A DNA stretch of 64,000 bases from Rhodospirillaceae bacterium. GTDB lineage: Bacteria; Pseudomonadota; Alphaproteobacteria; GCA-2746255. A program made the translations under genes and the position numbers. Under the pieces are notes generated by a model, which searched no databases, was not told the origin of the DNA, and saw nothing but the letters and a program-made list of their open reading frames with translations. This document shows, in pieces, positions 1-48,461 of the stretch; position 1 is the stretch's first letter; each line of letters opens with the position of its first letter. The stretch is from positions 2,404 to 66,403 of the forward strand of contig NVWO01000007.1 in NCBI GenBank assembly GCA_002746255.1, written 5' to 3'.

Positions 1-3000
1 ATTCGCACTTGGTGCGAGGCGGATGACCCGCATCACCTGCTCGCGTCCGTCCTTCTCAAGCCGGAGCAGATCGTTCTTCCGGACCCGCATGATCGGGCGC
101 GCATCGGGGTGGTCGCGTTTCCATGGGGGCGTCCAGTCCTTCCGGTTTGCATCGAACCGCGTCACGCCATAGCCGCGCCACTTCCCGTCCGGCGTTTCGA
201 TGATATCGATACAATAGTTCTCGCCGGGGATGACGGCCTTGTATTCTCCATTCTTCCCGTGGCGGATGACCTTGTAGTCCGCCTCGACCTTATGGACGCG
301 CACACGGTGTGTACCGGTTTCCTTGACGCAGCGTTCGAGTTCGGCCTGAAGCTCCTTTTTTTCAAGTCCTTTGGTGCGTTCCATCAATGTCTTGCGGATC
401 CCAAGATCGCCGATGCGCTTGACTTCCGCCGCCGTGAGCGAAGTCACGGGCTTGCGGGTTGCGAGCCGCGGTTCCCCCGTTAGAGGATCCCGAACGATCC
501 CGTAGGCCGTTTCCTCATGCAGCGCGCCTTCTACGCCGTGGTCCGGTTTGTGGGAAATGGTGATGCGGTTGATGGAGGTCCGGACATCTTCGCGGAAATT
601 CCGCCATGGCTCCTTCAGCCCTGCCAGCAGGCGTCTGTCGAAATTTTCTTCCGCACGTGCCGCTTCCGTGGCGACGCGTTGCAGCAGGCCACGGTCGGTC
701 AGCGCCACGACGATGGCATCGATGGCATGGTGGCGGTGGTCGTTGCGGTTCTTTGCCGGGTCCGCCGCCTCTTCCAGATTGTGACCCGCGAGCACCGAAT
801 TAAGCCCCCAGGTCCAGCGCAGATCGGCTGTCAACCGGCCCGGCGTCACCCAGACATCCGCGCCCGTGCGTAGAAGGTAGGTCTTGGCCAGGAGGGAGAG
901 GTAGCGCGTCTCGTTAAGCTGGCGGGCGAGGAAGTCCCGCTCTTCGTTGTCATAGCGCGCCATGGCGTCCGGCCCAAAGCGCCAGCTTTTGTTATTTGGT
1001 AGATTGGCGGCCCGCGCCTTTATTGCTGGCCAGTCGAAACCTTCTGGCGAGGAAGCAAAGGCTTCATAAGGTGTTTTCTGCCCCTTGACGCGATTGGCGA
1101 TGCGCATCGAGACGGTTTTGTTGCCGATGCCATCGTCAAGGGTGCGCGAGAACGGCAAAATGTGATCGATCTCCACTTCATCGGTGAACAGCCGCTCGAT
1201 GCCGATCTGTTCGCCGGTATAGGGGCAACGCCGGGTGAGCGGATTAGCCGGGTTTAGCTCCTCCCAAAGACGCAGGCGCAGGCGGTTTTCGTAAGTATCG
1301 GATAGTTTCTGTTCTTCAAGGATGGCGCGGCGCTTGTCGTTGGCATCCTGGTTGTCCCTTTGCTGTCGTTCGAGTTCCGATTTACCCTTGGCGGACAGCG
1401 GCAGATTGCGGGCGAGTTCGACCACGATTTCGGTCGGGCGGCCATAACGTTTTATCAACGCTTTTATCAACGTATTGATGACACGCCGAAGCTGGTTGAG
1501 CGCGACATGCACGGTCGGGTTGGCGATCTTGCCGACGCGCTTTTCAGGCAAGTCGGCGGGCTCGCCCGTGCCGAACGCGACATGACGTTCCAACACCTCG
1601 CCGTAATAGGGCAGCGCGTCGAACACCTCGCCGTCGAAATCAAGGTCGTCATAGCCCGCCGCCTCCTTGGCGGCGTCATAGGTAATCACGGCGCGTTCCA
1701 GTTCGGCCAGAACCCGGCGCGTGGCGGTGCGGCCCAGTCGCCCATGTCCGGCCGGCAAGGGCGCGTTGGCGACCTTCTCGGCGGCTTCGGCGGAAAGGCT
1801 ATGTTCGGCCATAAGCCAGTCAACGAGTGTTTTTTCGTTTTCCTCTTCGAGCAGACGCTTGACGATCTCTTCCTGGGCCTCGGCCGGAATTTTTCGCCAC
1901 CCCGGTCCCCAGCGATTATTGTTGGCGAGGACGGCGGCGGTCTTGTCGCCGTCGAGATGCTTGCGGCGTTCGCTTTCCAGATTGAAACGCGCCTCGTCCG
2001 GCAGTTTCAAGAGCTTGCGCGCCTTCTGAAATTCAAGCTTCTGATGTGCGAGGGCCCATGCGACAAGAGAATCACGTTCCTCCAGGGTCAGGTTGCGCTC
2101 AGCCTCGCCGGGCAGCCGCACGTTCAGATGATTAACCTCCTGATAGATACGGATGCGCTGGACCGAGGGCAGGGCATGCGGCGCGCGTTTCTCGGAAGGA
2201 TCAAGCGAACATTTGCCGACCGGCTGGGATTTTAACTTCCGCTGAAAGAGAAGGGTGTTGCGAAGCGCATCCCGCGCGGCATCGGACAGCGCCGCGTCAT
2301 GAAATTTTTTCTGCGCTTTCCACAACGTGTCAAACTCTTGCGCGATCATGTCACGGGTGGGGTAAAAGTCGTAAAATGCCTTGGCGCCGGAACCCTGAAG
2401 CCGCGCCCGAACCGGGTGTTCCTGTGCGGCTTCGTGAGCAGCTTTGCGAGCGGCTTTGCGAGTTTCGAAATCTTTCGGATTTTTAACGCGCGGTTTGGCG
2501 AGATATTCGCCAAGGGTTCGCGCGCCCGCGTTTTTCATTACCGTTTTTACGTTTTCCGCCGCAGATTTGATCTTGCCCTTTTCATCCTCGGCGCCCTTGT
2601 CTGTCTTGCGGTTCGACTTGAAGCCTCGGCGTTGCTGAAGGTGGAACAGCGCCCGGCCGAGTTCGTGGAGGGAAAGTTTCTCGTCAAGGCCGCGTACACG
2701 CAAGTACCAGGGGTCGAACTTTTCGAGCCGCTTTCGTTCAGCCGGGTCCTTCGGCATCAGGCCGTGTTCGATCAGGCGCTCCATGAATTCAGAGCGCCGC
2801 TTGAGATAACGGTCACGCCGCCTGCGTTGCTGGCGGGGCAGCCGACGCATGACGGCGAGCGACTGCTTGTCTTTTGGATTGCGCCCGTCCGAAAAGATGC
2901 GCACGCCCGATGCGATCAAACCGGTTGGCCGGCCTTGACCGTCTAGTTTAAGCGCCGCCCAGCCGAGTGAATTCGTCCCCAGATCCAGTCCCAAACGCCA

Positions 3001-3006
3001 TGCCAT
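1..3006 (-). CDS. cas9: Cas9 endonuclease, type II-C-like, C-terminally truncated by the window edge (1002 codons in window)
   Basis: Reverse-complement translation from the ATG at 3006 (RBS GAGGGAGGA upstream) reads MAWRLGLDLGTNSLGWA (RuvC-I), RRLPRQQRRRRDRYLKRR (bridge helix), IVVELARNL (RuvC-II), EIDHILPFSRTLDDGIGNKTVSMRIANRVKG (HNH), DHRHHAIDAIVVA (RuvC-III). The frame stays open to position 1. The plus-strand track ORFs here are G/R/L-rich antisense artefacts. Confidence 0.85.
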   Translation of the reverse strand, partial: MAWRLGLDLGTNSLGWAALKLDGQGRPTGLIASGVRIFSDGRNPKDKQSLAVMRRLPRQQRRRRDRYLKRRSEFMERLIEHGLMPKDPAERKRLEKFDPWYLRVRGLDEKLSLHELGRALFHLQQRRGFKSNRKTDKGAEDEKGKIKSAAENVKTVMKNAGARTLGEYLAKPRVKNPKDFETRKAARKAAHEAAQEHPVRARLQGSGAKAFYDFYPTRDMIAQEFDTLWKAQKKFHDAALSDAARDALRNTLLFQRKLKSQPVGKCSLDPSEKRAPHALPSVQRIRIYQEVNHLNVRLPGEAERNLTLEERDSLVAWALAHQKLEFQKARKLLKLPDEARFNLESERRKHLDGDKTAAVLANNNRWGPGWRKIPAEAQEEIVKRLLEEENEKTLVDWLMAEHSLSAEAAEKVANAPLPAGHGRLGRTATRRVLAELERAVITYDAAKEAAGYDDLDFDGEVFDALPYYGEVLERHVAFGTGEPADLPEKRVGKIANPTVHVALNQLRRVINTLIKALIKRYGRPTEIVVELARNLPLSAKGKSELERQQRDNQDANDKRRAILEEQKLSDTYENRLRLRLWEELNPANPLTRRCPYTGEQIGIERLFTDEVEIDHILPFSRTLDDGIGNKTVSMRIANRVKGQKTPYEAFASSPEGFDWPAIKARAANLPNNKSWRFGPDAMARYDNEERDFLARQLNETRYLSLLAKTYLLRTGADVWVTPGRLTADLRWTWGLNSVLAGHNLEEAADPAKNRNDHRHHAIDAIVVALTDRGLLQRVATEAARAEENFDRRLLAGLKEPWRNFREDVRTSINRITISHKPDHGVEGALHEETAYGIVRDPLTGEPRLATRKPVTSLTAAEVKRIGDLGIRKTLMERTKGLEKKELQAELERCVKETGTHRVRVHKVEADYKVIRHGKNGEYKAVIPGENYCIDIIETPDGKWRGYGVTRFDANRKDWTPPWKRDHPDARPIMRVRKNDLLRLEKDGREQVMRVIRLAPSAN

Positions 3007-3084
3007 GACTTTCCTCCCTCTCAAGCCGCAACCAGTGGTTGATTAAACCCCTTGCGCGAATGCGGGTAAAGGTGGTTAAATCAG

Positions 3085-3180
3085 GGACTGGTTTAGCTGA
3101 CTAGGAAACGAGGTCTTTCCGTTAACAAGATGAAAGATTCACAAAATAGGCGGTCCTTCGGGGCCGCCTTTCTTTTTTCG
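3085..3180 (+). ncRNA. candidate small RNA (possible tracrRNA) transcribed divergently from cas9, ending at a strong intrinsic terminator
   Basis: No plus-strand CDS precedes the terminator at 3149-3180. Weak TTGCGC / 18 nt / TTAAAT promoter-like elements near 3048-3080. No CRISPR repeat is available in the window to test anti-repeat complementarity. Confidence 0.2.
3149..3180. terminator. Rho-independent terminator: 8-bp GC stem with UUCG tetraloop (GGCGGTCC-TTCG-GGGCCGCC) followed by TTTCTTTTTT on the plus strand; also lies 20 nt past the stop of the minus-strand gene 3201-3908
   Basis: Read directly from the sequence. The T-tract is stronger on the plus strand (TTTCTTTTTTCGGGTTTT) than on the minus strand (TATTTTGTG). 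Confidence 0.7.
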
Positions 3181-3200
3181 GGTTTTCCTGTTTCCGGTGT

Positions 3201-3908
3201 CTAATGCCGAAGGAAGGTAACGATGGTGCCGCGTTTCGACGGGAAGCGGGCCTTCAGGATCACCCCGTCTTCGCCATACCAGAGGTCGGTACGCACGGGT
3301 TTGCCCTTGCGCATCTGGATGAGCGCGAAGGCCTTGGCCTGATGCGTCTGTCCCCGGATGGTGATGGCGGCTTGGCCCATATCCTCGGTGCGAATGGCCT
3401 TCATGCGCCCCTTTAGGGGGCTGAAAAGCTGGGCATGCCTCAGGGTTTCCTTGCACCAGATAACTTGAGAAAACAGCGGCGTTTCAATCTCTGAAAGGCT
3501 GCCATTCCGGTTCACCTTCAAACTCTGTCCGTTCGGTCCATGACTGTTCGGTTTGATGCGAATGGCGACTTCGCGGCGGTTGTCGACGGTTTTTCCATCA
3601 AAGCTCTGAAAAACATCCGTCTCCCAGATTTCTTCGGATTGATGGCGGTAATTCAGCAGCGGGATCAGATAAAGAAGCGTGACCTTCACCTTGATGAGGG
3701 TCGAAACTTTCGTGCGCGTGCCCTCGCGTTCGAAGTCGATCCATGCGCCGCCGATGGGGGTATTGTCGTTCAGGATGTCATAAGAAAACTTGCCTTGGGG
3801 AAGCGAACAGGCATCCGCCGACCTTGCGGCAAGAAAAACAAAGGCCAGAAAGAAAAACAAAACCTTGCTTGCGCGCACCGGATTTTTGCCTCCGACCATG
3901 CATCCCAA
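3201..3908 (-). CDS. exported protein of unknown function (N-terminal signal peptide)
   Basis: Track ORF, 235 aa, with hydrophobic N-terminus KVLFFFLAFVFLAARSADAC. Lies on the same strand directly downstream of modA. Confidence 0.55.
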   Translation of the reverse strand: MGCMVGGKNPVRASKVLFFFLAFVFLAARSADACSLPQGKFSYDILNDNTPIGGAWIDFEREGTRTKVSTLIKVKVTLLYLIPLLNYRHQSEEIWETDVFQSFDGKTVDNRREVAIRIKPNSHGPNGQSLKVNRNGSLSEIETPLFSQVIWCKETLRHAQLFSPLKGRMKAIRTEDMGQAAITIRGQTHQAKAFALIQMRKGKPVRTDLWYGEDGVILKARFPSKRGTIVTFLRH

Positions 3909-3940
3909 GGGGTCAGTATAGCGGCGCGCGCACGTCCGGC

Positions 3941-4720
3941 CTAGCTCGGGTGAAAGCCAAAACGTTTAAAGATTTTCTCGACTTCCGGCTCGCGCAGAAA
4001 GTGGTAGAAATTCGTCACCGCCGGTTCTGTGCGTGTGCCAATGGGAACAAGGTGGTAACGGATGGGCGCATGGGTCGTTGCCGGGATGACGGCGATCACT
4101 TTCACCCGGTCGCTGATCAGCGCGTCCGTCGCATAGACGATGCCGGCATCCGCCTGGCCGCGTTCGACCAGGGTAAGGGCTTCGCGCACGTCGCTTGCGA
4201 AAAGAAAGTTGGGCGTCAACGCTTCCCACAGTTCAAGCTGCGAAAGCGCCTCGCGGGCATAGCTTCCGGCGGGCACGTTGTCCGGCTCGCCGATGGTGAT
4301 CGTCCGGTCTTTCAGGTTCTTCGTGATGTGGAGGCCAAGCGGAATGCCGAGCTGAATGGAACTGTTCTTGCGGGTGATGAAAACCAGCCCGTTGCCACGT
4401 ATTTCCGAGGTTTTGCCGGTGGGCGTGATGCCGTAAGCGGCAAGAGCCTCTTTCCACTCCGGCCGGTCCGTAATCAGAAGATCAACCGGCGCACCTTTTG
4501 AAACCCGCTTCTCAAGCTCGGCACTGGAGGCAAAGGTGACCAGCACCGCCCCCAAACCCTTTGCAGCAAAACGCTCGGAAACGACTTGCAGCACGTTGGT
4601 AAGGCTTGTGGGCGCGTAAACGGTAACCGGCGTTATCACTCTTTCTGGTGCTTCCGCGAGAAGCGTGCCGGGAATGCACAGCACCACGAGTGCAAAAACG
4701 CAAAAGATGCCCTTTTGCAT
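3941..4720 (-). CDS. modA: molybdate ABC transporter periplasmic substrate-binding protein ModA
   Basis: VTVYAPTSLTNVLQ, GEPDNVPAGSYAREAL and VERGQADAGIVYATDA align with ModA. Start taken at internal Met MQKGIFCVFALVVL (signal peptide) immediately after the hisI stop; the track ORF extends to 4768. Confidence 0.8.
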   Translation of the reverse strand: MQKGIFCVFALVVLCIPGTLLAEAPERVITPVTVYAPTSLTNVLQVVSERFAAKGLGAVLVTFASSAELEKRVSKGAPVDLLITDRPEWKEALAAYGITPTGKTSEIRGNGLVFITRKNSSIQLGIPLGLHITKNLKDRTITIGEPDNVPAGSYAREALSQLELWEALTPNFLFASDVREALTLVERGQADAGIVYATDALISDRVKVIAVIPATTHAPIRYHLVPIGTRTEPAVTNFYHFLREPEVEKIFKRFGFHPS

Positions 4721-4721
4721 T

Positions 4722-5129
4722 CTAGCTTTTGTAAAGGTTCTTCGGATCGACAAGGACATCTTCCACATTTTCGAGTTTTCCCCCGCGCACCGCGCGGAAA
4801 AAACAACTTTGCCTGCCGGTATGGCAGGCCACCCCTTTTTGTTCGACGGTTACAAGCACCGTATCGCCGTCGCAATCCAGACGAAAGTCGATCAGCGTCT
4901 GGGTTTGCCCGGATGACTCGCCCTTTCGCCACAATTGCTTGCGGGATCGCGACCAATAATGGACCTGGCCGGTCGCAAGGGTCTTTTTGATCGCTTCGCG
5001 GTTCATCCACGCCATCATCAGAACCTCGCCCGTGCCGTCTTGTTGGGCGATTGCCGGGACAAGACCGTTTTGATCGAAAAGGACGGTTTCCAGAATTTCT
5101 GGCAAAGCATCGTCCCATGCGCTTGGCAT
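4722..5129 (-). CDS. hisI: phosphoribosyl-AMP cyclohydrolase HisI
   Basis: MPSAWDDALPEILETVLFDQNGLVPAIAQQ...CHTGRQSCFF carries the conserved Zn-ligand cysteines. Start at internal Met preceded by AGGAGA; the track ORF extends to 5225. Confidence 0.8.
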   Translation of the reverse strand: MPSAWDDALPEILETVLFDQNGLVPAIAQQDGTGEVLMMAWMNREAIKKTLATGQVHYWSRSRKQLWRKGESSGQTQTLIDFRLDCDGDTVLVTVEQKGVACHTGRQSCFFRAVRGGKLENVEDVLVDPKNLYKS

Positions 5130-6294: not shown

Positions 6295-7683
6295 ATGCGA
6301 GAAGCGATGAAGTCGATGTCCGGTCAAGAAACGCGGCCAAAAGCTCCACCGCCCGACGATGGGCACGATCATCGCCGCTGTATGACAGAGGCGATGACGG
6401 TGGCGGCGGACCTTTGCCAGCAGCGCGGTGTGCGTTTTACACCGCTTCGCCGTCAGATTCTTGAACTGATCTGGGACAGCCATATGCCCCTTGGGGCTTA
6501 TGCCATTCTTGACCGCCTCCAGGAGGCGGGCAAGTCCGTCCGGCCGCCGACGGTTTACCGCGCCCTCGATTTTCTGAGAGAGCAGGGGCTAATCCACCGG
6601 ATTGAATCCCGGAACGCCTATCTCGGCTGCGTCGATCCGTCGCGGCCCCACCCAAGCCAGCATTTGATTTGCGAAGATTGTGGGAAGGTTACGGAACTGG
6701 ACAATCGGGCGGTCGAAACGACTTTGGCAGCCGGGGCCAGGGCGAAAGATTTTCAACTGGTTGGTGCCACAATTGAGGTCCATGGGTTTTGCCGCGATTG
6801 CCGCCATGAGGTATCGCCGGAGGCGTTGAAAATGCCGCCGGAGGCACCACCACCACAGCCATCGCAGAACCTGTCCGGCACCGGGCAGGATTTGAAGCAG
6901 GGCCCCGTGCTGATCTCGGCAAAGGGGCTGACGCTTCGCCATGGCGGGCTTTTGGTGTTGGATCGCGTCGATCTTGCCGTCCATAAAGGCGAGATTGTGA
7001 CGATCATTGGCCCGAACGGCTCCGGCAAGACAACCCTCGTCCGGGTCCTTCTCGGTCTTATCGACCCCGAGGCGGGCAAAATCAAAAAGGCCAACGGCCT
7101 CCGCATCGGCTACGTGCCCCAGACTTTTGTGGTGGACCCGAACCTGCCCCTTACCGTCCGACGGTTTTTGGCGATGGCGGGGAGGGGGGCGGCGGATGTC
7201 CGCGAGATGCTTGCCGTCGTCGGCGCCGGGGATATCTTGACCCACCCTATTCAAAGCCTTTCCGGTGGCGAGCTTCGCCGGGTTCTGTTGGCGCGCGCCC
7301 TTCTCAGAAGGCCGAATTTGCTTGTCCTTGACGAACCGGTTCAGGGCGTCGATATGCCGGGCCAGTCGGAACTCTACCGGTTGATCGGCGATATCCGCCG
7401 CAAGCAGGGTTGTGCCGTGCTGATGATTTCCCATGATCTGCACCTGGTGATGGCGGCGACGGACGAGGTTATCTGTCTGAACCGCCACGTTTGCTGTGCC
7501 GGCCATCCAGAAGCCGTCAGCCGGCATCCGGAATATCTGGCCCTGTTTGGCGAAGTGGCCGATGAGACGCGTTTTGCCGTCTACACCCATCACCACGATC
7601 ACGTCCACGACGAGGCCGGAAATGTTTTACCGGCCTCCGATGTGCCACCTACCGGGGGGCCGACCCCCGGACCGGAGGTCTAA
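6295..7683 (+). CDS. znuC: single 462-aa ORF: Fur-family zinc uptake regulator Zur (aa 1-172) fused in frame through a Pro-rich linker to zinc ABC transporter ATPase ZnuC (aa about 200-462)
   Basis: Zur part: winged-helix segment plus CEDCGKV and CRDCRHE CxxC pairs. No stop codon follows it. Linker VSPEALKMPPEAPPPQPSQ. ZnuC part: Walker A GPNGSGKTT, signature LSGGELRRV, Walker B LLVLDEP, H-loop ISHDLH, His-rich tail. Internal ATG at about 6832 is preceded by GGAGG. Confidence 0.75.
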   Translation: MREAMKSMSGQETRPKAPPPDDGHDHRRCMTEAMTVAADLCQQRGVRFTPLRRQILELIWDSHMPLGAYAILDRLQEAGKSVRPPTVYRALDFLREQGLIHRIESRNAYLGCVDPSRPHPSQHLICEDCGKVTELDNRAVETTLAAGARAKDFQLVGATIEVHGFCRDCRHEVSPEALKMPPEAPPPQPSQNLSGTGQDLKQGPVLISAKGLTLRHGGLLVLDRVDLAVHKGEIVTIIGPNGSGKTTLVRVLLGLIDPEAGKIKKANGLRIGYVPQTFVVDPNLPLTVRRFLAMAGRGAADVREMLAVVGAGDILTHPIQSLSGGELRRVLLARALLRRPNLLVLDEPVQGVDMPGQSELYRLIGDIRRKQGCAVLMISHDLHLVMAATDEVICLNRHVCCAGHPEAVSRHPEYLALFGEVADETRFAVYTHHHDHVHDEAGNVLPASDVPPTGGPTPGPEV

Positions 7684-15813: not shown

Positions 15814-16797
15814 ATGGAGAAAATAAGAACGGCTGTCATCGGGGTTGGCTATTTCGGTAAATTTCACGCTGACAAATATGCGGGTCTTGCCCTTTCGGAA
15901 TTTACCGCTGTCGCCGACAGCGATCCGGCACGCGCCAGGGAAATTGCCGAAAAACACGGTGTGTCGTTCGTTTCCGACTATCGGGACCTGCTTGGCAAGG
16001 TCGATGCGGTCAGCATCGCCGTGCCGACACCCTTTCATTACGAGGTCGCCAAGGCTTTTCTTGAAAACGGCGTGCATGTTCTGATTGAAAAGCCAATCAC
16101 AGGCGACCTTGCCGAGGCCGACGAGTTGATCCGTCTGGCAGCGGAAAACGGCCTTGTGCTTCAGGTCGGGCATCTTGAGCGATTTTCGGCGGCCCGGCTC
16201 GGACTCGAAGGGGTGATTAATCGGCCTCTTTTTATCGAATGCAACCGTATCGCTGCTTTCAAGCCGCGCGGCACGGATGTCAGCGTGACTCTGGACATGA
16301 TGATTCACGACATTGACATGATCCAATATCTCGTCAAATCGCCAATATCCGAGGTCGATGCGGCCGGGGCGCCGGTTTTTTCAGGGGAGGAAGATATCGT
16401 CAATGCGCGGCTTCACTTTGAAAATGGCTGCATTGCAAATGTGACGGCAAGCCGTATCAGCATGAAGAACGAGCGCAAGATGCGTATCTTTCAACACGAT
16501 GCCTATCTCATGATCGACTTTGTGAACAAAAAAGTGGTCGTCGCCCGGAAGGGGGAAGGGGAAAGCCTTCCCGGCGTTCCGAAAATTGACGTTGAAGAGC
16601 ACACGTATGAAGACGAGGACATTCTAGAACGCGAAATCGATGCGTTTCTGAAATCCATTGCGGAAGGTCGCCCCCCCCTCGTCAGCGGTGAAGACGGTCG
16701 CCACGCCCTTGAAACGGCCTTGTTGATTAACGAGAGCCTGAAACTGCATGCGAGCCGCAGCCAGGCTCTTGGTGCAAAAGGGACGCTGCCTGGTTAA
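15814..16797 (+). CDS. Gfo/Idh/MocA family NAD(P)-dependent oxidoreductase
   Basis: Rossmann motif AVIGVGYFGKFHA, EKP motif HVLIEKP. Sits between bioD and bioB. Confidence 0.75.
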   Translation: MEKIRTAVIGVGYFGKFHADKYAGLALSEFTAVADSDPARAREIAEKHGVSFVSDYRDLLGKVDAVSIAVPTPFHYEVAKAFLENGVHVLIEKPITGDLAEADELIRLAAENGLVLQVGHLERFSAARLGLEGVINRPLFIECNRIAAFKPRGTDVSVTLDMMIHDIDMIQYLVKSPISEVDAAGAPVFSGEEDIVNARLHFENGCIANVTASRISMKNERKMRIFQHDAYLMIDFVNKKVVVARKGEGESLPGVPKIDVEEHTYEDEDILEREIDAFLKSIAEGRPPLVSGEDGRHALETALLINESLKLHASRSQALGAKGTLPG

Positions 16798-31425: not shown

Positions 31426-31517
31426 GTGGCCGCTCCCGATTATTGCATACAGTGTTCAGTAATTTGAATTTTTCAGCGACACAAGAACTATTATTAAAAG
31501 TGTTGCCTTTCAGTGCA

Positions 31518-33257
31518 TTAGCTATTTTTTTTAGGGGGGTTCCGCCAGTCGCGTTCGGCGTTGTCCCACGCTTCCAGCGGTTGCAAATCCGGCACCAGGG
31601 CAAGGCCGGCCTTGGCATCGCCCGAGACCGCCTCGCGGGTGACCCGCACGTCAAGGACGGCGGGTGCGTTTTCGAGGCAGCGCGCGAAGGCTTCGCCAAT
31701 ATCTTCCTCGCGCTCGACATGCTCGCCATGGGCGCCAAGCGCACGCGCAAGACCGGCATAATCGGAAAAGCGAAGTTCCGTGCCGACGATATTGCCGTCA
31801 TAGGTTTCGCGCTGGTCAAAGCATTCAATGTTCCATGCACCATTGTTGGCGATGACGAAAACAACCTTGGCGTCGTGGCGAACGGCGGTATCGACCTCGA
31901 TTGCATTGAAGCCAAAGGCGCCGTCGCCGGTGACAACAATGACCTGGCGGTCGGGAAGGGCGAGGGCGGCGGCGATTCCAAAAGGAACGCCCACGCCCAG
32001 GCAGCCAAGCGCGCCGGGGTCCATATAGGGGCCTGCGGAAAGGGCGACGCGGGCGAAACTCAGGATATCGCCGCCATCGGCGATGGTGACGGCATCGGGT
32101 GCGATCCGTTCCTGCAACACACTCAACAGGCGATTGGGATGGATATGGCCGTCGCTTCCGGGGGGCGTCTTCCTAAGTTTTTTAATAAATTTTTCTCTTT
32201 TTTTCGCGTGGGTTGCGCGTATTTCCTGAACCCACTTCTTATCTACGGCGGGCTTGCGATTGCCGGCTGCCGCGACGATGGCTTTCAGGGCCAGCGCCGG
32301 CGTGGCGACGATTTCTGGGCAGCCGCGCCGATTGTCGCGAAGTTCCTCTGCATGTTCGGCAAGGCGGACGAAGCGGGCGTTTTTGAAAATAGCTGGCGAG
32401 CCATAAGCAAGCTGAAAATCGAGCTTGCGGCCGATGGTCAGGACGACATCGGCTTCTTCCATCACCTGGCCGCGCAGCGAGGAAACGACGGCGGGGTGGC
32501 TGTCTGGAACAAGCCCCCGGCTTTCAGACGTGTCGAGGTAAAGGGCGTCCAGCGCATCAAGCATCGCGCGAAGTTCGGGCCCGGCACCGCGTGCGCCACG
32601 CCCGGTAATCACCAGCGGTCGTTTGGCATTCCACAGAATTTCGACCGCCGCGGCGATGGTTTTTGGGTCGGGCTGCAATTGCACCTTGGCCCGTGGTGCC
32701 AAATGTTCGGCAAAAACCTGGTGCCGGGGCAGGCGTGCGCGCAGGAGATCCGTCGGAAAATCAATGTAGGCCGGGCCTGGTACATTGCCTTCGCCGCTGG
32801 CGCGCGCAAAGGCCTCGTCAAGGGCGGGCACGACATGGGCCGCTTCGCGCACGGTCCGGGTGTAGCGGGTGATGGAGCGAAGCAAATCCGTGTGCACAAG
32901 ATCCTGCAATGCCCCCATCTGTTCCTGGGGGCATGGCGGCACGCCGGAGATGACGACGATCGGGGCCCGGGCGACATCGGCGTTGACGATGCCGGTGATC
33001 GCGTTCGTGACGCCGGGTCCGGCGGTGGCAAGCACAACTGCGATGTTGCCTGTCAGTTCGGCATGGGCATGGGCCATGTGGGCGGCGGCACGTTCGTCAC
33101 GGACGTCAATGATGCGAATGCCGGCGCGGGCGACCCGGTCCCAGATGGGCATGATATGGCCGCCGCAAAGCCCGAAAACACGGTCGATGCCGCGTGCGGT
33201 AAGGAATTCGGCAATAAGGCCGGCGATCGTTTCCGATGTCTCTGCATTCTGAGCCAT
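31518..33257 (-). CDS. thiamine diphosphate-dependent enzyme of the 2-hydroxyacyl-CoA lyase / oxalyl-CoA decarboxylase family
   Basis: GLVPDSHP and GDGAFGFNAIEVDT...NNGAW resemble the Oxc/HACL GLLPDNHP and GDSAFGFSGMELET...NNGGIY more than acetolactate synthase. Start taken at MAQNAETSE; the track ORF, with an alternative start, extends to 33323. Confidence 0.65.
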   Translation of the reverse strand: MAQNAETSETIAGLIAEFLTARGIDRVFGLCGGHIMPIWDRVARAGIRIIDVRDERAAAHMAHAHAELTGNIAVVLATAGPGVTNAITGIVNADVARAPIVVISGVPPCPQEQMGALQDLVHTDLLRSITRYTRTVREAAHVVPALDEAFARASGEGNVPGPAYIDFPTDLLRARLPRHQVFAEHLAPRAKVQLQPDPKTIAAAVEILWNAKRPLVITGRGARGAGPELRAMLDALDALYLDTSESRGLVPDSHPAVVSSLRGQVMEEADVVLTIGRKLDFQLAYGSPAIFKNARFVRLAEHAEELRDNRRGCPEIVATPALALKAIVAAAGNRKPAVDKKWVQEIRATHAKKREKFIKKLRKTPPGSDGHIHPNRLLSVLQERIAPDAVTIADGGDILSFARVALSAGPYMDPGALGCLGVGVPFGIAAALALPDRQVIVVTGDGAFGFNAIEVDTAVRHDAKVVFVIANNGAWNIECFDQRETYDGNIVGTELRFSDYAGLARALGAHGEHVEREEDIGEAFARCLENAPAVLDVRVTREAVSGDAKAGLALVPDLQPLEAWDNAERDWRNPPKKNS

Positions 33258-33508
33258 TGTGCGATATCTCCACCTGTAGACAAGCAGTAACTGCTTGAAA
33301 TAAAAGTATAATATTTCACGCACTTTGCATGTCGTATGCAGTCTTTGGAGTGTACGCGTTTGCTTGGCGCATCACAATGTCTGTATGCCGCTCTTGCGAT
33401 CCACCATCTGTAAAATCCCCTGCCAGACGCCCACAAAGGGATGCTAATATCGATCCCATTGTGGGCGTTGGCCTGTCCGAAATCTGTCCTGTTGAAGAGG
33501 TGTTTTCC

Positions 33509-35337: not shown

Positions 35338-35413
35338 TGGCTCCCCGAGTCGGACTCGAACCAACGACACAGCGGTTAACAGCCGCTTGCTCTACCAACT
35401 GAGCTACCGGGGA
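35338..35413 (-). tRNA. tRNA-Asn (anticodon GUU)
   Basis: Reverse complement folds as a cloverleaf: acceptor UCCCCGG/UCGGGGA, anticodon loop CUGUUAA, T-arm GUUGGUUCGAGUCCGAC, encoded CCA. Confidence 0.85.
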
Positions 35414-35551: not shown

Positions 35552-35625
35552 TGGAGGCGCGGGCCGGATTCGAACCGGCGTACACAGATTTGCAGTCTGC
35601 TGGATAACCACTCTCCCACCGCGCC
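35552..35625 (-). tRNA. tRNA-Cys (anticodon GCA)
   Basis: Reverse complement GGCGCGGUGGGAGAGUGGUUAUCCAGCAGACUGCAAAUCUGU...GGUUCGAAUCCGGCCCGCGCCUCCA. Confidence 0.85.
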
Positions 35626-47643: not shown

Positions 47644-48461
47644 TGGCCGTGGCAAAGCATTCGACGACCCGGCCGCCATTTTTCATGCGGCGTGGCGTTT
47701 TGGGCTTTTTCGCGGCTCTTGCCGCTTTTGGGATGTTTGCTGCCGTCGTTTTGGTTGCGTATGAGGAAAATATAAGATCCGGCGACGTCATCGTGCCGAT
47801 TGTGCGGGCCGAAAAGGGTCCGATCAAGATACGCCCAGAAACGCCCGGTGGCATGACCGTGCCATTTCAGGACAAGCTGGTCTATGACCGACTTTCCGAG
47901 ACGGCAGAAGGGGCGGAGAAGACGCACCTGTTGCCGCCCCCGGAAACACCTGTGGCATTGCCAAAAGCGCCTGCGGCATTGCCAAAAGCGCCTGCGGCAT
48001 TGCCAAAAGCGCCTGCGGCGGCTCCAAAAGCGCCTGCGGCAGCCCCAAAAGCGCCTGCGAAAATAGCAGATAGCGTAACTGCCGGTGAGGTGCCGCCGAA
48101 GACGGAGCTTTTGCGCCGTTTGGAGATGGAAACGCCGCCTGTGAAGTCCACACCGGCATTGGCGAAGCCAAAGGCATTGGCCAAACCGAAACCTGCAAAT
48201 GCGGCGTCTGAACAGACTCTTCGCATACAGATTGCGTCCCTGCGATCCGAACAGGCAGCCCGTGACCAGTGGGCACGGCTGCAAAAAGCCCATGGCGACC
48301 TTTTCGGGCCACTGGCCCTTCATGTGCAGCGGGTGGATTTGGGCGGGCGAGGGATTTTCTTTCGTCTGCAGGCGGGGCCGCTGGCCGGCGTTGCGGCGGC
48401 AAAAGCGCTCTGCGCGACACTTCAACAACGCAAGCTGGGGTGCCTGCTTGTCCGCCCCTGA
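47643..48461 (+). CDS. SPOR-domain protein (single TM, Ala/Pro/Lys-rich repetitive linker, C-terminal SPOR)
   Basis: TGATG overlap with argS. C-terminal LRIQIASLRSEQAARDQWARLQ...FFRLQAGPL. The track ORF extends to 47487. Confidence 0.7.
   Translation: MAVAKHSTTRPPFFMRRGVLGFFAALAAFGMFAAVVLVAYEENIRSGDVIVPIVRAEKGPIKIRPETPGGMTVPFQDKLVYDRLSETAEGAEKTHLLPPPETPVALPKAPAALPKAPAALPKAPAAAPKAPAAAPKAPAKIADSVTAGEVPPKTELLRRLEMETPPVKSTPALAKPKALAKPKPANAASEQTLRIQIASLRSEQAARDQWARLQKAHGDLFGPLALHVQRVDLGGRGIFFRLQAGPLAGVAAAKALCATLQQRKLGCLLVRP
47955..48059 (+). repeat. 21-nt tandem repeat x5 (3 identical copies GCATTGCCAAAAGCGCCTGCG + 2 variants) encoding (A-L/A-P-K-A-P-A)5 within the SPOR protein
   Basis: Seen in sequence. 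Confidence 0.85.

Follow-up and report, generated by a model that had tools for sequence, protein, structure and literature searches.

A compact type II-C Cas9 and its predicted tracrRNA in a very probably complete CRISPR-Cas locus of an uncultured Rhodospirillaceae bacterium

Type II-C CRISPR (clustered and regularly interspaced short palindromic repeats) loci are recognized by cas9, cas1 and cas2 without csn2 or cas4 (PMC12477760), and the described systems closest to the one reported here are those of Neisseria meningitidis, with Nme1Cas9 and Nme2Cas9, and of Geobacillus, with ThermoCas9 and GeoCas9. We have analyzed a stretch of 64,000 nucleotides (nt) from a Rhodospirillaceae bacterium (assembly GCA_002746255.1, contig NVWO01000007.1, positions 2,404 to 66,403; hereafter the window), and we are confident that its first 3,006 nt, read on the minus strand, are the 5' part of a cas9 gene belonging to a complete chromosomal type II-C CRISPR-Cas locus of this uncultured organism. 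The likeness to the N. meningitidis system extends from the minimal cas9-cas1-cas2 gene set, devoid of csn2 and cas4 (PMC12477760), to a compact Cas9 (about 1,050-1,080 amino acids, aa) with the same domain order and to 36-nt repeats separated by 30-nt spacers. The proteins are nevertheless only distantly similar, Nme1Cas9 chains being matched over two partial stretches with E of about 1e-58, and the host of the Cas9 described here is an environmental alphaproteobacterium. Of the solved structures, ThermoCas9 and GeoCas9 (PDB 9ar4 and 8uza) come closest in sequence (E = 3.5e-68 and 2.4e-65), alignable over residues 1-342 and 491-813, while the middle of the recognition (REC) lobe and the WED and PAM-interacting (PI; PAM, protospacer adjacent motif) regions are not alignable by sequence. 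In the ThermoCas9 chain 9ar4_A, the catalytic residues D8 and H582 align with D8 and H615 of the window's Cas9, and the motifs IELAR of RuvC-II and HHAxDA of RuvC-III coincide. Parvibaculum lavamentivorans and other alphaproteobacterial type II-C systems, mentioned here as a lead only, have a Cas9 of about 1,040 aa and repeats that, on the transcribed strand, start with GYTGCGG and end in GCTA-type sequence. Finally, the protein itself is already in GenBank: the product of the full-length gene is an exact match to PCJ59550.1, 'MAG: type II CRISPR RNA-guided endonuclease Cas9 [Rhodospirillaceae bacterium]' (MAG, metagenome-assembled genome), encoded on a contig of 90,837 nt, a record whose name conveys neither the tracrRNA, nor the orientation of the array, nor the C-terminal cassette considered below.

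The cas9 frame starts at an ATG at 3004-3006 and runs on the minus strand through window positions 3006 to 1, i.e. 1002 uninterrupted codons. Its final 57 codons and the stop codon fall to the left of the window and were read from a metagenome contig identical to it (L091; labels in L denote loci and labels in P proteins of our collection), giving a full product of 1059 aa of which the window holds the 5' 95% of the gene. With TIGR01865 (cas_Csn1, the NCBIfam equivalog of Cas9), whose cut-off is 100 bits, this protein reaches 605.2 bits over residues 4-957, far above chance expectation, and it matches the Pfam families HNH_4 (E = 3.1e-20), RuvC_III (E = 2.2e-24) and Cas9_a (E = 4.2e-9, residues 260-356). 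Its architecture is that of Cas9, with a RuvC domain split into segments I, II and III and an HNH domain inserted between RuvC-II and RuvC-III. RuvC-I GLDLGTNSLGWA occupies 2956-2991 on the minus strand (residues 6-17), with the codon of the catalytic Asp8 at 2983-2985. It is followed by the arginine-rich bridge helix RRLPRQQRRRRDRYLKRRSEFMERL, read from the translation at 2773-2847 (-) (residues 54-78) and mostly invariant in the alignment of relatives; its segment RRLPRQQRRRRDRYLKRR (residues 54-71), together with the Cas9_a match, accounts for the bridge helix and REC lobe expected of a Cas9. RuvC-II, EIVVELAR, is at 1408-1431 (-), with the catalytic Glu530 encoded at 1417-1419. The HNH domain, as delimited by Pfam HNH_4, spans 1066-1227 (-) (residues 594-647), within which the motif EIDHILPFSRTLDDGIGNKTVS and its continuation (residues 612-642, 1081-1173 (-)) carry D614-H615 (1162-1167) and N638 (1093-1095). 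The RuvC-III subdomain of Pfam spans 538-942 (-) (residues 689-823) and contains DHRHHAIDA at 715-741 (-) (residues 756-764), which holds H760 and D763. The whole catalytic set, D8, E530, D614-H615, N638, H760 and D763, is thus kept, and it is invariant in an alignment of seven relatives at 64-84% identity.

A sequence-only reading of the window, made before these searches, had described a type II-C-like cas9 of 1002 uninterrupted minus-strand codons that is invisible in the list of open reading frames (ORFs). Translation bears out the frame, and the remark on the list was correct: the ORF lister omits frames running off the end of the window. That reading had placed RuvC-I at 2960-3000, HNH at 1140-1200 and RuvC-III at 700-730; all the signatures are present, its coordinates being slightly shifted, by about 30 nt at most, from the exact ones given above. 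It had also proposed alignment to type II-C orthologs as a check, and this shows the catalytic residues intact against the ThermoCas9, GeoCas9 and Nme1Cas9 chains in a protein of full length, while the exact match to a protein from a Rhodospirillaceae MAG supports the alphaproteobacterial origin it had supposed. Its statement that the PAM-interacting C-terminus is cut off by the window edge holds for the last 57 residues and fails for the domain as a whole, of which residues about 846-1002 are inside the window. A pseudogene was ruled out, zero stops being found in the 1002 codons of the window as in the 1059 codons of the full gene.

The remainder of the locus was reached through the gene for a substrate-binding protein close to cas9 (3941-4768, minus strand), whose exact look-up retrieved two contigs. 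Scans with Cas9 peptide patterns had yielded relatives only, at 40% identity among genome contigs and at most 63% among metagenome contigs. By BLASTN, L090 (ENA) is 100.000% identical to the window over 14,768 nt and L091 (JGI 3300029925) is 100.000% identical to positions 1-4843 (4,843 nt), both with zero mismatches and zero gaps, and L091 extends 2,472 nt beyond position 1 of the window. On L091, cas1 (302 aa, PF01867) overlaps the stop of cas9 and is followed by cas2 (101 aa, PF09827), and a CRISPR array starts 93 nt after cas2 and occupies 6356-7315, up to the contig end, with at least 15 identical 36-nt repeats AGTTTAGCTGATTAGGAAACGCGGTCCAACCGCAAC and 14 distinct 30-nt spacers. Neither csn2 nor cas4 was found between cas2 and the array on this contig, which ruled out types II-A (csn2) and II-B (cas4). 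With cas1, cas2 and an adjacent array on an identical contig lacking csn2 and cas4, the locus is therefore a complete one of type II-C, not an orphan, and a second, independent assembly (L095) has the same cas9-cas1-cas2. Along the cas9 strand the order is tracrRNA gene (on the opposite strand), cas9, cas1, cas2 and array; in the same orientation, an array of 36-nt repeats lies downstream of cas9 in 64 of the 89 related loci fetched.

The 194 nt separating cas9 from the next gene carry, on the plus strand and thus opposite to cas9, the elements of a trans-activating CRISPR RNA (tracrRNA): an anti-repeat, a 3' tail and a terminator, as expected of a type II-C tracrRNA, within 3090-3180 (+). This gene, whose ends are predicted, is divergent from cas9. 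A covariance model built from 19 relatives, with the window excluded, gave one strong match in the 64 kb, at 3089-3182 (+) (89 bits, E = 1.8e-22), the next best match reaching 10.6 bits. The anti-repeat GGTTTAGCTGACTAGGAAACGAGGTCTTTCCGTTAAC (3090-3126 (+)) nearly copies the CRISPR repeat in inverted orientation, and a plus-strand RNA would therefore pair with a CRISPR RNA (crRNA) made from the strand opposite cas9. Against the cognate repeat of L091, 25 of 27 positions are paired, and past an internal loop and a bulge comes a distal helix of 7 bp; the minimum free energy of the anti-repeat/repeat dimer is -68.6 kcal/mol, compared with -38.2 +/- 2.5 for shuffled repeats. The two partners co-vary: among 52 unique loci, cognate pairing averages 23.2 of 27 positions and non-cognate pairing 17.7 of 27. 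Moreover, in 55 of the 62 array-bearing loci what most resembles the repeat outside the array is a copy in inverse orientation, located 26-351 nt, mostly 60-100 nt, upstream of the cas9 start, and the seven others also carry a copy.

Downstream of the anti-repeat, the nexus region (3127-3146 (+)) comprises AAG, the short stem-loop GAUGAAAGAUUC and a conserved ACAAAAU, and it is an invariant core in two alignments of relatives. In the single guide RNA (sgRNA) of N. meningitidis the tracrRNA tail likewise starts with AAG after the duplex. Across relatives the tail is near-invariant (GYTAACAAG, a stem, then CACNAAAT). The nexus stem co-varies at one pair (CG in 8, GC in 7 and AU in 4), a score reached in 0 of 500 shuffles, and the proposed structure pairs 89.5% of cells, against 62% when shuffled and at most 48% when slid. 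This structure was given by hand with a reading sequence by sequence; in the MAFFT alignment the terminator hairpins are out of register, and for this reason RNAalifold recovered no more than two pairs of the nexus. An intrinsic terminator, identified by a terminator scan, occupies 3148-3179 (+) with a GC-rich 9-bp hairpin (3148-3169) and a T tract (3170-3179), and relatives carry a hairpin at the same position of the tracrRNA. The hairpin sits 32 nt past the stop of the convergent DUF6134 gene, and it probably serves both genes as a terminator that is likely bidirectional. By eye, a weak candidate promoter for the tracrRNA can be read as TTGCGC-N18-TTAAAT.

One could argue that 3090-3126 is a stray degenerate repeat, the remnant of an inverted array, rather than part of a tracrRNA, as 25 of its first 27 positions have the same letter as the repeat or are wobble-compatible. 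No Rfam tracrRNA family reaches the gathering score here or anywhere in the window, Rfam having no model for the tracrRNA of this Cas9 clade. Such a remnant is extremely unlikely, the element being single-copy and inverted relative to the array. An invariant tail (GTTAACAAG, stem, CACAAAAT) and a terminator come after it, and this is conserved in more than 50 loci, its distance from cas9 being the same. In addition, the segment differing from the repeat (TTTCCGTTAAC as opposed to CAACCGCAAC) is itself conserved, and it makes up the internal loop and the bulge that Cas9 guide duplexes typically have. With the tracrRNA reading retained, the earlier expectations on the locus can be judged. The call of type II-C, which the cas1, cas2 and array without csn2 or cas4 on L091 vindicate, was right, and these were found where they had been predicted, immediately left of the window. 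Extension to the left, put forward as the way to tell a complete locus from an orphan cas9, gave a complete one, and the repeat extracted from it pairs with the tracrRNA candidate as expected. The view that nothing at 3007-3200 is a cas gene is right as to protein genes; the region is not empty, since it encodes the tracrRNA.

Three observations agree in indicating that the crRNAs would be read from the strand opposite cas9. The first is the orientation of the anti-repeat and of its own terminator; the second is a hairpin followed by a T-run, which that strand carries between cas2 and the first repeat and which is kept in the locus of the closest ortholog (L004); the third is that the repeat on that strand starts with GTTGCGG and ends with GCTAAACT, as other type II-C repeats do, which share this start and this type of end. 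The hairpin, ACGCCCTTG...CAAGGGCGT, lies at 6308-6355 of L091 and at about 7400-7464 of L004; it probably terminates transcription of the array, and it may act in both directions. On the same strand the repeat can be written GTTGCGG-TTGGAC-N17-TAAACT, in which the two hexamers, read by eye, are weak matches to the sigma-70 consensus (3/6 and 4/6). Promoters embedded in repeats are a known mode of crRNA transcription in type II-C systems (PMC12477760). Compared with N. meningitidis, which like Campylobacter uses such promoters, the repeat of the window's locus lacks an extended -10 and has a -10-like TAAACT that is weak, and its internal promoters are putative. At the far side of the L005 array from cas2 (16108-16161), the outermost repeat has a degenerate end (...CCGCGGGG in place of ...CCGCAAC), which suggests that new spacers would be added at the cas2-proximal side. 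Following the established type II-C mechanism, transcription of the strand opposite cas9, possibly driven by the promoter-like elements inside each repeat, would yield crRNAs, which would form duplexes with the tracrRNA and be loaded into Cas9. The C-terminal domain of Cas9 would read the PAM, after which HNH would cut the target strand and RuvC the other strand, and Cas1-Cas2 would insert new spacers.

Several observations weigh against a complete and active locus and have to be considered together. The genes cas1 and cas2 and the array are known from an identical metagenome contig, not from the window itself, and L004, whose cas9-cas1-cas2 is intact, has a single repeat (7465-7500) and no spacer. 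The window's own nexus stem has only two clean pairs and a U-U mismatch, the ends and promoters of the tracrRNA and crRNAs are those that we infer, and a sigma-70 promoter scan of 2800-4100 returned no site. As for the 14 spacers, their best match in the window has 8 mismatches and is no protospacer, they have zero matches in 50,697 phage records and 72,556 plasmids, and four of them, searched as 24-mers, have zero matches in IMG/VR, so that the spacers reveal neither targets nor a PAM.

Part of this would suit an orphan or decaying locus, in which cas9 and the tracrRNA persist while either the adaptation module or the array has been lost or only one repeat is left of it, so that no crRNA-guided immunity is left: L004 (Cas9 83% identical) looks like such a case, and the window holds no CRISPR array, the anti-repeat being its sole repeat-like copy. 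For the window's genome we regard this as very unlikely, since the contig 100% identical over 4,843 nt has intact cas1 and cas2, 15 perfect repeats and 14 distinct spacers, and L095 repeats the gene set independently. The loss of spacers in L004 therefore means that array collapse occurs in the lineage, though not in the genome of the window. Immediately after its single repeat, L004 has a tRNA gene encoded on the opposite strand; from synteny with L004 and L005, a tRNA gene and an NDUS4-family gene may also lie beyond the array of the present locus. An engineered single-repeat, crRNA-null allele of N. meningitidis boosts spacer acquisition through apoCas9, and the state of L004 resembles it (PMC12477760).

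A second possibility is that the locus is complete and its Cas9 is not used for DNA interference, being silent or repurposed for regulation or for acquisition only. The missing protospacers and promoter consensus would agree with this, and RNA-free roles in acquisition are documented for type II-C Cas9 (PMC12477760). We judge it unlikely: every nuclease residue is intact and invariant across relatives, the repeats are identical and repeat/anti-repeat complementarity extends over the clade, as expected under selection for guide RNA function, and a lack of spacer matches is usual for uncultured hosts. For the complete locus that we favor, RNA-guided and PAM-dependent double-strand DNA cleavage by this Cas9 is a prediction from the established type II-C mechanism.

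The C-terminus, which looks exchanged, is the sole mildly unusual part of this Cas9. The identity profile of the protein against its relatives breaks sharply near residue 845, directly after HEETAYGI, and the sequence beyond forms a WED/PI cassette (residues 846-1059 in the full protein), of which the N-terminal three quarters (846-1002) are encoded at 1-471 (-) of the window. P0002 is 85% identical to the window's Cas9 over residues 1-845 and 33% over 846-995, and P0003, P0004, P0005, P0009 and P0014 are 68-78% and 29-33% identical over the same two segments, while P0001 stays at 83% and 85%. Conversely, the full cassette is 55-60% identical by BLASTP to those of P0056, P0006, P0022 and P0048, although over the 845 N-terminal residues these four share no more than 54-66% identity with the window's Cas9. 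Both types of cassette have the final stretch of some 20 residues, ARLVHVDPAGRVFDPGPP, in common again. These relatives come from a BLASTP search of the cassette against 269 collected proteins. A HMMER search of cluster representatives was set aside, its profile being contaminated by N-terminal columns (322 positions) and its counts not being specific to the cassette, and a word-index search with the 163-aa C-terminus returned P0121 only, missing even P0001.

The cassette of P0121 is homologous to the window's and 65% identical to it, and its AlphaFold model (206 residues, mean predicted local distance difference test, pLDDT, of 87.4) matched Cas9 chains alone among the top 34 PDB matches, with probabilities of about 1.0. 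These include SaCas9, CjCas9, Nme1/2Cas9, GeoCas9 and others, at 10-16% identity (10-13% for the N. meningitidis PI regions). The fold match gives no target coordinates, so its placement at the C-terminus rests on the position of the cassette. With P0121 as proxy, the window's domain, which is without its last 57 aa, would thus adopt the WED/PI fold of Cas9; the fold is therefore canonical, and the PAM is not readable by homology.

The mosaic pattern of identity is best explained by an exchange of cassettes between Cas9 lineages. We would put at about even chances the proposal that residues about 846-1040 were acquired from a different Cas9 lineage by recombination and that the PAM of the window's Cas9 and of P0001 differs from that of their sister orthologs. 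If true, this would be a natural swap of the PAM domain in an environmental alphaproteobacterial clade, analogous to Nme1Cas9, Nme2Cas9 and Nme3Cas9. In these otherwise close orthologs, known for such an exchange, natural variation is focused on the PAM-interacting domain, and Wei et al. in 2022 are said to have dealt with such variation too.

This locus is an uncharacterised member of a well-known kind, with textbook mechanism and architecture and a protein already named Cas9 in GenBank. Beyond cataloguing it matters little, as it adds another compact (1059 aa) type II-C Cas9, with its guide RNAs now defined. The repeat, the tracrRNA and the orientation of transcription suffice for the design of an sgRNA (repeat part GUUGCGGUUGGACCGCGUUUCCUA, GAAA link, tracrRNA from about 3102 to 3180). 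The exchanged cassette makes this Cas9 a reasonable candidate where new PAM specificities are wanted, and together with relatives of the P0002 type it offers a natural chimera series for the modularity of the PAM domain. No open question becomes newly testable, and the swapped cassette is the only lead worth following up.

Around and within cas9, further features were noted. A GGAGG-type Shine-Dalgarno sequence, GGGAGGAAAG, was read 5' of the ATG at 3009-3018 (-). A box, TTGATTAAAC, upstream of cas9 at 3039-3048 is shared by the window with L004 and L005; its sequence on the cas9 strand is GTTTAATCAA, and by eye it could be the -10 element of a weak cas9 promoter (TTTACC-N17-TTTAAT). In the REC lobe, an insertion of 14 aa, DFETRKAARKAAHE (2431-2472 (-)), faces a gap in seven of seven aligned relatives, and it coincides with a 12-nt period detected by Tandem Repeats Finder at 2436-2462. 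It looks like an in-frame slippage duplication made of RKAA, RKAA and HEAA units.

The neighbors of cas9 are genes for DUF6134 (3201-3908 (-), convergent with the tracrRNA and called as a product of 225 aa), a periplasmic binding protein, PRA-CH, ZnuA, a Fur-family/ZnuC fusion and ZnuB, and farther into the window are those for the valyl-, arginyl- and seryl-tRNA synthetases (ValRS, ArgRS and SerRS), SecD, IlvD and methylmalonyl-CoA mutase, in line with the core chromosome, zinc-uptake cluster included, that the sequence-only reading had seen there. The same neighbors (znu genes and DUF6134) flank cas9-cas1-cas2 in L004 (83% identical Cas9), L005 and L006 (71%); the group has thus kept this chromosomal locus by vertical descent, and cargo of a mobile element was ruled out by this conservation in relatives at 71-83% identity. 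The fusion is encoded by a single ORF of 462 aa at 6295-7683 (+), with a Fur-family (Zur-like) domain at residues 44-162 and a ZnuC-type ABC ATPase at 222-349, and it also occurs (450-458 aa) in the syntenic loci L005, L006 and L090. On opposite strands, two long ORFs overlap at 31443-33290 (+) (615 aa) and 31518-33323 (-) (601 aa), the product of the former having no Pfam match at E <= 1e-5. Two tRNA genes, at 35341-35413 and 35555-35625 (-), are the sole Rfam matches at gathering score in the window. Finally, between the genes of ArgRS and of a glycosyl hydrolase of family 3, a tandem repeat of 21 nt in 5.3 copies (92% matches) lies at 47949-48059, inside overlapping long ORFs.

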